From the sequence record MK327935.1: DNA of 64,000 nucleotides; one strand, given 5' to 3'. Below, piece by piece: positions 38,146 to 40,425 of this stretch. Numbering within the stretch: the first letter of the stretch is position 1; the number at the start of each line of letters is the position of its first letter. The notes under the pieces are model-generated. The model was not told the DNA's origin, made no database searches, and saw only the letters and a list, made by a program, of their open reading frames with translations. The stretch comes from Escherichia phage vB_EcoM_G2494. The position numbers and the translations under genes are program-made.

Positions 38146-38173
38146 ATTATAGGCATCTAAATCGCTCTGTCAA
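38146..38173 (-). promoter_or_regulatory. sigma70-type early promoter (minus strand)
   Basis: TTGACA, 16-nt spacer, TATAAT on minus strand, downstream of hoc terminator. Confidence 0.6.
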
Positions 38174-38183
38174 GCACAAAAAC

Positions 38184-38209
38184 AAAAAAGCCACCCCGAA
38201 GGATGGCTG
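38184..38209 (-). terminator. rho-independent terminator after hoc (minus strand)
   Basis: AGCCATCCTTCGGGGTGGCT hairpin followed by U-run. Confidence 0.65.
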
Positions 38210-38219
38210 ATATATTTCA

Positions 38220-39434
38220 TTAAGCAGGATGCATTTCACGAATGCGTAGAACTCGCTCTAACGTCTCTCGGTCCAGTTTATGTAACTCTTTGGAATGATA
38301 CATGAAACCATTGCGAGATTCCATGCAAGTGCAATCACTATATTTTTCTTCCGCTGCCGCGATTGTCTCCAGATCTTTGGCGTACTTGCTTGTTGAATAA
38401 ACTTCTCGATCACGCCACTCTAACCCAGCCTCATTGAATTTAACAATCTCGTCAAATACCCACCATCCAATGTAGATAAATGAAGTTTTGCGCCACGGGA
38501 TCGGGTGTACGTAACGAAACATTTTAACAACTTCCATCGAACATTTTCGGCTTGTACTTGCTGCAACTTCTACTGTTTCATCTTCGATCTGTTGATATAG
38601 TTTAGCAACACACCAGAATTTGGCTGTGTCATCGTAAGTAGCACTCTCTTTGAACAGATGACCGTCTGGAGTGATAGAAAATCCTTCCAGTGCTTCGCCG
38701 ACCTCACTACCGATCAGAGTCGGTGACATTTGCCCTTCGCGCTGCAAATACCAGTTATATTTGATCGTCAAATTAGGCATACCGCTAGAATCGCCTACAA
38801 TGTTCTCTGACACAACATAATTAAGTAAGATCTCATTACCTAGTGCCACGGTCTTTGATTCCACCACATCCTGATCTAAGTTCATTGTTGCCAGCATTAT
38901 TTTAGTCGATGCGCTAGCGGCTGAATCTTCCGACTCACCCCACACTTTTACAGTATACACGCCGTTTTTATCTGCTGTAAATTCTTGGATTGTAATATCT
39001 TTTTTTGTGTCTATAACGTCTTCGCCCTTACTCCAACTATAATGTAGTTCATAGTTGTCTGCTGGAGTCTTCCCACCAGAAAATTTTACTGTTGCATGTA
39101 ATTCTACGTCTGTTTGTGATGATACGTAGAAATGCTGCGGTTCGGTGATATTTACGATTAATTCAGCTTCTTCCATGAGAAAAACTTCAGATTCTACTGA
39201 TTCCATCGTATCGGTATCCTGTACCGTTACTTTATAGATACCCGCATTTTCACTTGTTGCGTCTGCTACAGATAGCGTAGCTGTGCTATTTTCATGTGGT
39301 TGGTCGTCTTTTGTCCATGTATATGTCAAATTGCTGGGTAATGGTTCGTCACCCGATACAGTCGCCGTTAAGGTGAAACCATCGCCAGCAAGAAAACATC
39401 TTTTGTCAGATTTAATTGATACTGTGAAAGCCAT
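38220..39434 (-). CDS. hoc: highly immunogenic outer capsid protein Hoc
   Basis: 404 aa; Ig-like repeat region plus C-terminal capsid-binding block (YVHPIPWRKTSFIYIGWWVFDEI ... ESRNGFMYH) matching T4 Hoc. Confidence 0.85.
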   Translation of the reverse strand: MAFTVSIKSDKRCFLAGDGFTLTATVSGDEPLPSNLTYTWTKDDQPHENSTATLSVADATSENAGIYKVTVQDTDTMESVESEVFLMEEAELIVNITEPQHFYVSSQTDVELHATVKFSGGKTPADNYELHYSWSKGEDVIDTKKDITIQEFTADKNGVYTVKVWGESEDSAASASTKIMLATMNLDQDVVESKTVALGNEILLNYVVSENIVGDSSGMPNLTIKYNWYLQREGQMSPTLIGSEVGEALEGFSITPDGHLFKESATYDDTAKFWCVAKLYQQIEDETVEVAASTSRKCSMEVVKMFRYVHPIPWRKTSFIYIGWWVFDEIVKFNEAGLEWRDREVYSTSKYAKDLETIAAAEEKYSDCTCMESRNGFMYHSKELHKLDRETLERVLRIREMHPA

Positions 39435-39603
39435 ATAAAGCCACTCCCATAGAAAATCCGAATTTAATTAATTGAAATAGTTGATTGCCATCAACCAGAT
39501 AACCATTGCGAGATTCCAATACATGAGTATTAGAATAGTGATGCAACGAGGCCGAAATAGTATCGATCTCGTCTGGGTATTTGTTCTGTTTGATGTAATA
39601 CAT
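39412..39603 (-). pseudogene. hoc C-terminal-like fragment
   Basis: YYIKQNKYPDEID...HVLESRNGYLVDGNQ parallels the last ~45 residues of Hoc; no good RBS; overlaps hoc start. Confidence 0.4.
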
Positions 39604-39699
39604 TTATTTTGTTAGACATGTAGTATCCTCTTTTTAATTGCATAACGGAACTACAATTAAAATTATAACAAATATTTCACAACTTTTATCACCCAAAAA

Positions 39700-40425
39700 T
39701 TACTTGAGTGTGTGGAATTGGCTGTGTTTAGTCTCTCGCACCTTGACAGACCCATCGCGTTTGATATAATAGATCAGTGACTTGAGTGTGTCGTGTACAT
39801 ACGCGTGCGGGAAACGCTCTGGATACTTCTTCCAATCTGGAGTATTAACGATCCAGTCGAAAATCCACCACGGGCAGGAGTAGTAACCACGACCGCCACC
39901 GATCAAGCAAATGGTCGGACGGAAACCAGTAAGATCGCAAAATGAATCAGTGTCATGTGCTGGGGAACGATGCTCTGCTTCGTTAGAGAAAATGTTGGCT
40001 ACCGGAGATTCCACTTTAACTTCCGGTGCTTCTTCAACATCTGACTTAACTTCTTCGACCACTGGTTCAACTGCCGGAGATTCTTCTTTTGTTTCTTCAA
40101 TGACGATCTCAGGTTCTTTCATTGCTTCAACCAGAGACGGATCAACTTCGTCGAATACCACTTTATCATCTGCGGTGTCTGTTGCCAGAATAAGATCGTT
40201 AATACTGGTTCCTTCTGCCGGAGTTTCTTCTTCCATTTCGGAAGCCAGTTTAGTTAATTCTGTTTCTACGAACTCGATCATGTTCTCTAGCGAGAGCGTC
40301 TTTTTGACCTTTATATCAAATTGTTTTGCGTAGTCCGCTAATTCTGTTTTAGCGGCTTTCTGTGATTCTTTGTCGTCGGACGCCGCAATAGCGCGGAGTT
40401 CTTCGAAATATTCTTTATCAAACAT
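39700..40425 (-). CDS. acidic protein with Hoc-C-terminal-like segment (inh position by synteny)
   Basis: 241 aa; acidic low-complexity middle; C-terminal CPWWIFDWIV...DWKKYPERFPHAYVHDTLK resembles Hoc capsid-binding region. Confidence 0.45.
   Translation of the reverse strand: MFDKEYFEELRAIAASDDKESQKAAKTELADYAKQFDIKVKKTLSLENMIEFVETELTKLASEMEEETPAEGTSINDLILATDTADDKVVFDEVDPSLVEAMKEPEIVIEETKEESPAVEPVVEEVKSDVEEAPEVKVESPVANIFSNEAEHRSPAHDTDSFCDLTGFRPTICLIGGGRGYYSCPWWIFDWIVNTPDWKKYPERFPHAYVHDTLKSLIYYIKRDGSVKVRETKHSQFHTLK

Follow-up and report, generated by a model that had tools for sequence, protein, structure and literature searches.

The small ORF between inh and hoc in a Krischvirus genome as the probable leftover of a deleted second hoc gene, beside an intact Inh with a Hoc-related C-terminal domain

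Two Hoc-domain proteins per phage have been described for Serratia phage Muldoon (1174-aa and 314-aa Hoc) and for Enterobacter phage PG7 (PMC10385173), and in such phages the two proteins share the capsid-binding domain and differ in the number of their Ig-like domains (Fokine et al. 2023, PMC10385173). A PG7 protein of 511 aa carries the Hoc capsid-binding domain at its N-terminus, joined to a GDSL lipase domain (PMC10385173). The Hoc residues that contact the capsomer are W309/W310, D313, E355-S-R-N-G359 and Y293/H295/R300, and in T4 Hoc the ESRNG loop contacts the capsomer centre (PMC10385173). In the T4-like genomes examined, hoc adjoins inh, and in T4 itself inh is followed directly by hoc. 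The T4 Inh protein (inh/lip) is annotated in databases as an inhibitor of the prohead protease gp21 and as a minor head protein.

The window, a 64,000-nt stretch of the genome of Escherichia phage vB_EcoM_G2494 (MK327935.1), was identified as Krischvirus (RB49/Phi1-like T4-type phage), with 97-98.6% identity to Krischvirus genomes in which inh, a hypothetical ORF and hoc are annotated. All window features given below lie on the minus strand, where the order is inh (241 aa, 39700-40425), a 63-aa ORF (39412-39603; RB49p168.2, phrog_32100) that overlaps the start of hoc, and hoc (38220-39434), so that both ORFs upstream of hoc are where a preliminary description of the locus had placed them. The hoc product has Pfam PKD/Ig matches and was recognized by phrog_1149 (E 6e-83) and by an 87-position HMM of the Hoc C-domain built in the present analysis (Hoc_C, 122.8 bits), and a terminator-like hairpin (38189-38208) lies directly 3′ of its stop codon. 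We conclude, with a probability of about 0.92, that the small ORF is the leftover of a deleted second hoc gene (hoc2), and that its 241-aa neighbour is an intact Inh whose C-terminal domain is related to Hoc. No description of a two-hoc versus one-hoc polymorphism within Krischvirus was found in the literature searched.

The resemblance of the small ORF to the Hoc C-terminus, first noticed by reading the sequence, proved to be well above chance. Residues 7-45 matched residues 349-387 of the window Hoc in BLASTP (E 2e-8), the ORF was recognized by the PHROG Hoc profile phrog_1149 (E 2.9e-6), and it scored 36.8 bits against the Hoc_C HMM (E 2.6e-10 among the 1293 six-frame ORFs of the window). 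Its weak tblastn matches were almost only Hoc genes, spread across many T4-like genera. The match is confined to positions 45-83 of the 87 HMM positions and so covers only the latter half of the capsid-binding domain. Compared with the Hoc proteins of T4 and RB49 (highly immunogenic outer capsid protein; PDB 8T1X for the T4 C-domain, 3SHS for RB49 domains 1-3), the remnant has the ESRNG loop in common. HMM and sequence alignment with the complete capsid-binding domain revealed neither strand 1 with its YVHPxPxR motif, nor strand 2, nor the WW helix, and the ORF gave no Pfam match, so that no Ig-like or PKD domain was seen; the translation signals are missing as well. A complete capsid-binding domain, an Ig-like or PKD domain and an intact frame with start signals, which would characterize a functional Hoc, are thus all lacking.

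As an intact multi-Ig gene encoding 846-847 aa, hoc2 is preserved in six genomes of Krischvirus, among them Brandy, JK32, SSG23, UPWr_E1 and G2248. The 846-aa gene of Brandy lies exactly between inh and hoc, and the order inh-hoc2-hoc was established for Brandy plus four fetched of the five further intact copies. In the hoc2 product some eight Ig-like domains precede a Hoc capsid-binding domain; the Brandy protein has Pfam matches to Ig_2 and Ig_3, starts with MSDKINILHQT and ends, before the stop codon, with KYPDEIETIAASLHHYSNTHVLESRNGYLVDGTQLF. The intact Krischvirus gene (846 aa, Ig_2/Ig_3) fits the pattern of the second Hoc in Muldoon and PG7, whereas the window lacks the second gene as a gene and retains 148 nt of its 2541 nt, out of frame. 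Three states of the locus were distinguished: intact hoc2 (n = 6), a Phi1 type (12 records), and the window type, which is consistent with 33 records that match the 3′ side of the junction only.

Both ends of hoc2 could be located in the window. The surviving RBS (AAAGAGGA) and ATG (39617-39633) align with the 5′ UTR and start of hoc2 in Brandy, UPWr_E1, G2248, JK32 and SSG23, the 5′ UTR with the RBS being 91% identical between the window and Brandy. They are followed by a 5′ remnant of 12 codons, MSNKINVLHQTE (39584-39619), where the intact genes begin with MSDKINILHQT or MSNKINVLHQTE. Across a deletion junction at 39583-39588, the 3′ remnant (39472-39583) comprises the last 36 codons (KYPDEIDTISASLHHYSNTHVLESRNGYLVDGNQLF) and the former stop codon, mutated from TAA to CAA (39472-39474); it is 88% identical at the nucleotide level to Brandy (L003:2502-2724) at the same locus, and 36% identical over 39 residues to the C-domain of the window Hoc. 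The remaining stretch up to hoc (39435-39471) is the former hoc2-hoc intergenic spacer according to alignments with the intact genomes, and has kept the hoc RBS. The two ends of hoc2 are joined out of frame, with about 2.4 kb (2.39 kb) gone. The 3′ remnant thus combines significant similarity to the Hoc C-domain with synteny to an intact paralogue, which indicates descent from a hoc gene. The suggestion that the remains of a second Hoc-type decoration gene lie here consequently stands for the small ORF, with an intact gene at the same place in relatives, but does not hold for the 241-aa protein.

Sequence comparison shows that the remnant arose in two steps from an ancestral order inh, hoc2, hairpin, hoc, which the six genomes with intact hoc2 still have. 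An illegitimate deletion of about 2.3 kb first fused hoc2 at about codon 40 out of frame to its last 36 codons, producing the Phi1 type, and a second deletion of 75 bp between two CAGAA repeats then produced the window type, common to RB49. Phi1-type genomes retain 75 bp more than the window, with CAGAA on either side; in the window a single CAGAA (39584-39588) marks the second deletion, and the 3′ remnant begins at 39583. Loss of the stop codon and of the hairpin between hoc2 and hoc came afterwards. The intact genomes have a terminator-like hairpin here (GCCGACCTTCGGGTCGGC), annotated in G2248, which a 13-nt deletion has removed from the window, and a scan of the window between inh and hoc gave no terminator-like site on the minus strand. 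Among the six intact genes, UPWr_E1 comes nearest to the 5′ remnant, whereas the 3′ remnant is most like Brandy, JK32 and SSG23; as none of the six is the parental hoc2 allele, the first deletion cannot be placed with single-base precision. A sequencing error as the cause of the broken frame was rejected, since dozens of independent genomes share this junction.

The large gene is found in only six of about 58 matching records, and this count, together with the direct succession of inh and hoc in T4, would also suit the reverse history, in which the Brandy-type gene is a recent insertion and the short spacer of the window is ancestral. However, an empty site would not hold what the window keeps, namely the hoc2 RBS, the ATG plus 12 codons (37 in Phi1) and the last 36 codons. 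In addition, the intact copies have diverged to 60-96% amino acid identity among themselves, yet under purifying selection, which points to an old gene and makes a recent insertion extremely improbable.

With hoc2 deleted, the make-up of the 63-aa ORF can be read codon by codon: six off-frame codons (MYYIKQ), one junction codon, 36 native hoc2 codons, the former stop codon, and 19 read-through codons whose residues correspond to former intergenic sequence read after the stop was lost. The earlier observation that this ORF has no convincing RBS is borne out by the sequence before its ATG at 39603, CTAACAAAATAAATG. A strong RBS, AAAGAGGA, is located 16 nt further upstream, and it serves the other frame, being that of the original hoc2 start. 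Translation from this surviving RBS would yield just a 29-aa nonsense peptide (MSNKINVLHQTEQIPRRDRYYFGLVASLF, 39530-39619), in which the 3′ remnant is read out of frame; Phi1 ORF168.1 (54 aa) is its counterpart. Duplicated YYIK codons had been taken as a sign of rearrangement; the four letters do occur in both ORFs, but they are no rearrangement scar, and the match is coincidental because the copy in the small ORF is hoc2 codons 6-12 (NVLHQTE) read in the wrong frame.

Could the small ORF nevertheless encode a functional protein, for instance a free Hoc half-domain that modulates the binding of Hoc to the capsid, or one with a new role? The frame is open in the window-type genomes among the matches listed at full coverage, it forms a PHROG of its own, phrog_32100, and it keeps ESRNG, the loop through which T4 Hoc touches the centre of the capsomer. 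Its conservation weighs little, however, because the window-type genomes are 97-99% identical. Function is further opposed by the missing RBS, by the absence of strands 1-2 and the WW helix, and by the ex-intergenic origin of the terminal 19 residues; moreover, the ORF is absent from the gene calls in three contigs, and in Phi1-type genomes two stops close the frame, leaving 46 aa from a TTG. Substitutions in the last 36 codons point to relaxed constraint and argue in the same direction, with an excess of nonsynonymous changes in the remnants (4-5, including the stop loss, versus 1-3 synonymous) and 0-1 nonsynonymous versus up to 18 synonymous codon differences in the intact genes. We therefore consider a functional small protein quite unlikely. 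Judged from its sequence, the 63-aa ORF is best described as an accidental frame through hoc2 debris, an ordinary pseudogene, and both it and the 29-aa ORF are probably non-functional. RB49p168.2, Phi1 ORF168.1 and phrog_32100 are accordingly pieces of one deleted gene and should be annotated as a pseudogene instead of as hypothetical families. The virion of the window phage would be expected to carry one kind of Hoc fibre where two would otherwise compete for the gp23 hexamer centres, and the three Krischvirus states (an intact 846-aa second Hoc fibre, one deletion, two deletions) offer a natural comparison that would probe the contribution of a long Hoc fibre, which might concern adhesion, dispersion or host range.

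The 241-aa protein is an intact orthologue of T4 Inh. Residues 1-241 aligned with positions 1-229 of the 229-position phrog_1051 (E 2e-76), the gene is annotated as inh in Phi1 and other records, and Pfam assigns Phage_Inh_N (PF26097) and Phage_Inh_C (PF26098) to proteins 98-100% identical to it. Like T4 Inh, it consists of two domains joined by an acidic linker, and it is 58% identical to T4 Inh over the C-domain (about residues 165-241; 39703-39933). By annotation, the window Inh would be an inhibitor of the gp21 protease and a head protein. Among 88 cluster representatives of the family, the C-domain ends within 10 residues of the C-terminus in all 86 full-length matches, T4 included, and the other two are N-terminal fragments.

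These data bear on the earlier proposal that a single Hoc-type domain or gene once comprised both the C-terminus of the 241-aa protein and the 63-aa ORF, and was broken up by a rearrangement or by an insertion flanked by duplicated YYIK codons. The motif order does look colinear with Hoc, WWxFDxIV lying in the 241-aa protein and ESRNG in the small ORF, and YYIK stands at either end of the gap. However, Inh is full length, and where Hoc has ESRNG it has a matching loop of its own, which reads RETKHS in the window and RETRNS in the family. The two pieces, described earlier as successive parts of the Hoc domain, in fact overlap on the Hoc_C HMM (positions 17-75 for the 241-aa protein and 45-83 for the small ORF). 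In the gap between them lie the RBS and start of a different gene, of which six genomes have an intact copy, and MYYIKQ, as noted above, is out-of-frame hoc2. A split gene, with the 241-aa protein as one broken piece, is thus barely credible. Two further explanations of the gap were discarded: a translational bypass or programmed frameshift over about 160 nt, as in T4 gene 60, is contradicted by the constant end of Inh and by the start of another gene within the gap, and the remnant of a mobile element or homing endonuclease between duplicated target codons by the homology of the gap to the hoc2 5′ UTR and start.

The Hoc-like C-terminus of the 241-aa protein is a separate matter. In pairwise comparison the likeness noted earlier is marginal (window Inh against window Hoc, WWIFDWIV versus WWVFDEIV, BLASTP E 0.056), but profile comparison indicates that it is real: hhalign of Inh_C with Hoc_C gave a probability of 96.7% and E 3.8e-10 over 74 of about 85 columns, and reciprocal hmmsearch gave 25-36 bits. 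Inh_C also shares the fold of the T4 Hoc C-domain (8T1X) in structure comparison. At about 18-20% identity, the likeness is detected by profiles or fold only. A single-sequence phmmer search with Inh_C against 1.84 billion representatives recovered Inh proteins only and no Hoc, which indicates that profiles are needed to find the relationship; Pfam keeps Phage_Inh_C separate from Hoc and places it on no recorded Hoc protein, and neither the 2023 Hoc structure paper (PMC10385173) nor the T4 head reviews searched mention a relationship between Inh and Hoc.

Convergence or chance resemblance could be invoked on account of the weak pairwise BLASTP values (E 0.056 in the window; 0.001 in CfP1), the Foldseek E of 0.39, which is non-significant alone, and the first-strand Hoc motif YVHPxPxR (Y293/H295/R300), which is absent from all Inh proteins compared. 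This explanation has a small chance at best, given the hhalign and reciprocal HMM matches, the alignment of the key functional residues and the adjoining positions of the inh and hoc genes. Read against the contact residues of Hoc (PMC10385173), the family equivalents are RE(T/S)RNS for the ESRNG loop and P(W/Y)W..D.I for W310/D313. On profile and fold comparison, the Inh C-domain is a complete, full-length homologue of the Hoc capsid-binding domain in the T4-like genera sampled. The alternative raised in the preliminary description, a Hoc-type capsid-binding domain reused on a different protein, is thereby supported, with Inh as that protein. The case resembles the 511-aa protein of PG7 in placing a docking domain on an unrelated module, as proposed for Inh; Inh_C is, however, much more diverged, and the annotation of Inh is that of a protease inhibitor, not of a surface display protein.

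The relationship between the Inh and Hoc domains is a more interesting by-product of the analysis than the pseudogene, and it gives a concrete hypothesis for the position on the T4 head of Inh, a poorly studied protein. Since Inh_C is homologous to the Hoc domain, Inh probably docks in a Hoc-like manner on gp23 capsomers. The fuller scheme, in which Inh docks on gp23 through its Hoc-type domain, Inh, Hoc and, in genomes that have it, Hoc2 derive from one ancestral module and are encoded side by side, and docking takes place perhaps at the hexamer site of the prohead before expansion, is put forward tentatively, and we judge the odds to be somewhat against it. If it is true, the hexamer centre would be a site that Inh fills or marks, perhaps at a stage when Hoc is still unable to bind, and the reported protease-inhibitor and minor-head roles of Inh would be tied to one defined binding site. 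Competition for this site would then have natural variants in the RETKHS loop that replaces RETRNS in Krischvirus and in the loss of hoc2 from most isolates. The RE(T/S)RNS loop occurs in 70 of 85 Inh proteins, and RETKHS, found in the window, sets the Krischvirus proteins apart from most other T4-like Inh.

The 2.7 kb around the inh-hoc interval are 97-98.6% identical to 50-odd genomes of Krischvirus, the T4-type myoviruses of E. coli, among them RB49, Phi1, JSE and GEC-3S. In transcription order, the minus strand carries inh (39700-40425, 241 aa), a small ORF (39412-39603, 63 aa) and, last of the three, hoc (38220-39434, 404 aa), and uvsW (plus strand, from 40481) diverges from inh. In curated records, the 241-aa protein appears as Inh, the inhibitor of the prohead protease gp21, and the 63-aa ORF as hypothetical RB49p168.2; the Phi1 annotation places another small ORF, ORF168.1, in this spacer. 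In vB_Eco_TB34, each of inh and uvsW is annotated as two separate CDS (L002, 2196-2920 and 2991-3694), probably through assembly frameshifts rather than biology, since both genes are intact in all other relatives.

The preliminary description, whose observation was partly confirmed and whose interpretation was partly supported, had read the C-terminus of the 241-aa protein and the small ORF as successive parts of the Hoc capsid-binding domain. The small ORF does resemble the Hoc C-terminus: BLASTP aligned its residues 7-45 with residues 349-387 of the window's own Hoc (E 2e-8), the PHROG Hoc profile matched it at E 2.9e-6, and it scored 36.8 bits on an HMM built here from 30 Hoc C-domains. A tblastn search of 50,697 phage records returned weak matches in many genera, almost only on Hoc genes. 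That the ORF lacks an RBS was likewise upheld. Pairwise likeness of the 241-aa C-terminus to Hoc was marginal (E 0.056, WWIFDWIV versus WWVFDEIV), and the two segments overlap rather than succeed each other, covering HMM positions 17-75 (241-aa protein) and 45-83 (small ORF).

One tblastn match, only 76% identical, fell on the terminal part of a large annotated gene in phage Brandy, where inh is followed by this gene (2541 nt, 846 aa; hereafter hoc2) and then by hoc. Its product starts with MSDKINILHQT and ends with ...YVHPIPWRRTSFQYQGYWVLDEI...KYPDEIETIAASLHHYSNTHVLESRNGYLVDGTQLF before the stop; the Pfam matches (Ig_2 and Ig_3) together with the Hoc-like end identify it as a long Hoc paralogue. 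Intact hoc2 was found in five more records (SSG23, SFHK24, JK32, UPWr_E1 and G2248; 60-96% amino acid identity), and the four of these that were fetched, all classified as Krischvirus, showed the inh-hoc2-hoc order.

Alignment of the window to the intact-hoc2 genomes located both ends of the gene between inh and hoc, which, given its intact state in relatives, bears out the proposal of a remnant second Hoc gene. The 5' remnant (39633-39584, minus strand) comprises the 5' UTR with its RBS AAAGAGGA and the ATG plus 12 codons (MSNKINVLHQTE); the 3' remnant (39583-39472, minus strand), joined to it out of frame, holds the last 36 codons and the former stop. In all, 148 of 2541 nt are left and ~2.39 kb are missing. 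Twelve records of the Phi1 type share the identical 3' junction and retain a further 75 bp of 5' sequence (hoc2 codons 13-37), flanked on both sides by CAGAA. At least 33 records, RB49 among them, match the 3' side of the junction only, which fits the window type. In the simplest history, one deletion of about 2.3 kb would have generated the Phi1 type, and removal of 75 bp between the CAGAA repeats would then have generated the window type. Compared with all intact genes, the remnants have the hoc2 stop changed from TAA to CAA and have lost 13 nt from the hoc2-hoc hairpin GCCGACCTTCGGGTCGGC, which the G2248 record labels a terminator. Sequence comparison shows that the locus arose from a late gene cluster inh-hoc2-hoc through two illegitimate deletions, and we put the probability that the interval is such a deletion remnant at a little over nine in ten.

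The hairpin is strong in intact-hoc2 genomes (L003:2621-2669 in Brandy; L059:3550-3569) and has its window counterpart at 39435-39471; its loss, common to all deletion-type genomes, may have re-established read-through to hoc once the gene upstream had gone. The remnant is also mosaic with respect to the surviving intact alleles (Phi1, L001:3083-3157, against L058 and L003): UPWr_E1 hoc2 is all but identical to the 5' piece, seen in Phi1, and the nearest relatives of the 3' piece are those of Brandy, JK32 and SSG23. Therefore, either no sequenced intact gene is the parental allele or the deletion was followed by recombination.

The 63-aa ORF proved to be a five-part chimera, in which M1-Q6 read hoc2 codons 6-12 (NVLHQTE) in the wrong frame, N7 spans the deletion junction, K8-F43 are native hoc2 sequence, Q44 is the mutated hoc2 stop and L45-N63 run from the former intergenic spacer into the hoc start. 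The YYIK once taken as duplicated at the junction is coincidental, because it belongs to the conserved family motif SLxYYI in Inh and to off-frame hoc2 codons in the small ORF. Two stops within the extra 75 bp interrupt this frame in Phi1-type genomes, where a 46-aa ORF beginning at a TTG is left. Among intact hoc2 genes, the final 36 codons show up to 18 synonymous versus 0-1 nonsynonymous differences, whereas between the remnants and the intact genes nearest to them there are 4-5 nonsynonymous (stop loss included) and 1-3 synonymous differences; by these counts, constraint on the remnant is relaxed. Gene callers left the ORF uncalled in three independent contigs. We infer that the inh-hoc interval is a pseudogene, in which the surviving hoc2 RBS would yield a 29-aa nonsense peptide and the 63-aa frame would be translated poorly or not at all.

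The 241-aa protein, for its part, is a complete Inh: phrog_1051 aligns with it end to end (E 2e-76), T4 Inh shares 58% identity with its C-terminal 74 residues up to the very last one, and Pfam assigns Phage_Inh_N and Phage_Inh_C to proteins 98-100% identical to it. A phmmer search with Inh residues 151-241 against 1.84 billion cluster representatives matched 88 proteins, with no longer protein and no Hoc among them; the domain ended within 10 residues of the C-terminus in all 86 full-length matches (about 120-280 aa), and the other two were fragments aligned over the linker only. The end-to-end phrog_1051 match and the family-wide C-terminal position of the domain rule out Inh as a broken fragment, and with it the idea that Inh and the ORF form one broken domain.

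By-eye comparison of T4 and Citrobacter phage CfP1 sequences showed a likeness beyond the WW motif (RETRNS in Inh versus ESRNG in Hoc), and profile tests were therefore run. The Hoc C-domain HMM scored Inh C-termini at up to 36.4 bits, and the reciprocal search reached 25.8 bits; hhalign of the two C-domain alignments gave a probability of 96.7% (E 3.8e-10) over 74 columns, essentially all of both domains. An AlphaFold2 model of the window's Inh (86-sequence alignment; pLDDT 95-98 over residues 160-241) ranked the T4 Hoc C-domain chain (8T1X) first in Foldseek (TM 0.58 normalised to target, E 0.39). Profiles and model together show that the Inh C-domain is a Hoc-type domain, and this homology supports the other suggestion of the preliminary description, a capsid-targeting domain reused on another protein. 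Docking of Hoc at the hexamer centre involves W309/W310 at the start of helix 1, D313 and the loop E355-S-R-N-G359, with R357 pairing with D313 and N358 bonding to gp23 R344 (Fokine et al. 2023, PMC10385173). The Inh family has the counterparts P(W/Y)W..D.I and, in 70 of 85 cluster representatives, RE(T/S)RNS, and lacks the YVHPxPxR strand of Hoc; Inh would dock on gp23 capsomers via this domain. Inh goes unmentioned in PMC10385173, Pfam treats Phage_Inh_C as a family of its own with no match on recorded Hoc proteins, and the searchable literature yielded no statement of an Inh-Hoc relationship, although it may have been mentioned elsewhere earlier; the homology is the part that may be of use to a T4 head specialist.

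The Krischvirus Inh loop reads RETKHS (residues 230-235, window 39718-39735) instead of RETRNS or RESRNS; it corresponds to the ESRNG loop that Hoc places at the capsomer centre, and docking may be altered or lost in the genus. Pseudotevenvirus-type Hoc-like proteins (L004:6295-7035 in CfP1; L009-L021) carry the capsid-binding domain at the N-terminus, at loci where two unrelated genes separate inh and hoc. In the L014 copy the domain is interrupted by an in-frame stop (YID*TDVD), which reflects either a further gene in decay or an error of sequencing.

The window phage would display the 404-aa Hoc only. Brandy-type relatives would display two fibre types with one common docking domain and, as a result, in competition for the hexamer centres, where Hoc sits in T4 (155 sites per capsid, PMC10385173). 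Precedents for a second Hoc paralogue, and for a Hoc docking domain attached to other cargo, exist in Muldoon and PG7 (PMC10385173), and decay of such a paralogue is nothing unusual. The finding serves mainly annotation hygiene and points to a natural two-Hoc versus one-Hoc polymorphism.

A perfect sigma-70 consensus (39743-39770, plus strand; TTGACA, 16 nt, TATAAT, with an upstream TG) lies antisense inside the inh 3' end, directed toward uvsW. Phi1, UPWr_E1, G2248, JK32 and SSG23 have the site unchanged or with one spacer base different, and the corresponding codons in T4 inh lack it. The site could serve as a promoter for early antisense transcription, or it could simply result from the conserved codons for YYIKRDGSVKV. 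Another perfect sigma-70 consensus promoter (38146-38173, minus strand), conserved in relatives, follows closely after the terminator hairpin of hoc (38189-38208); the gene cluster that comes next (24.3 and others) is presumably transcribed from it.
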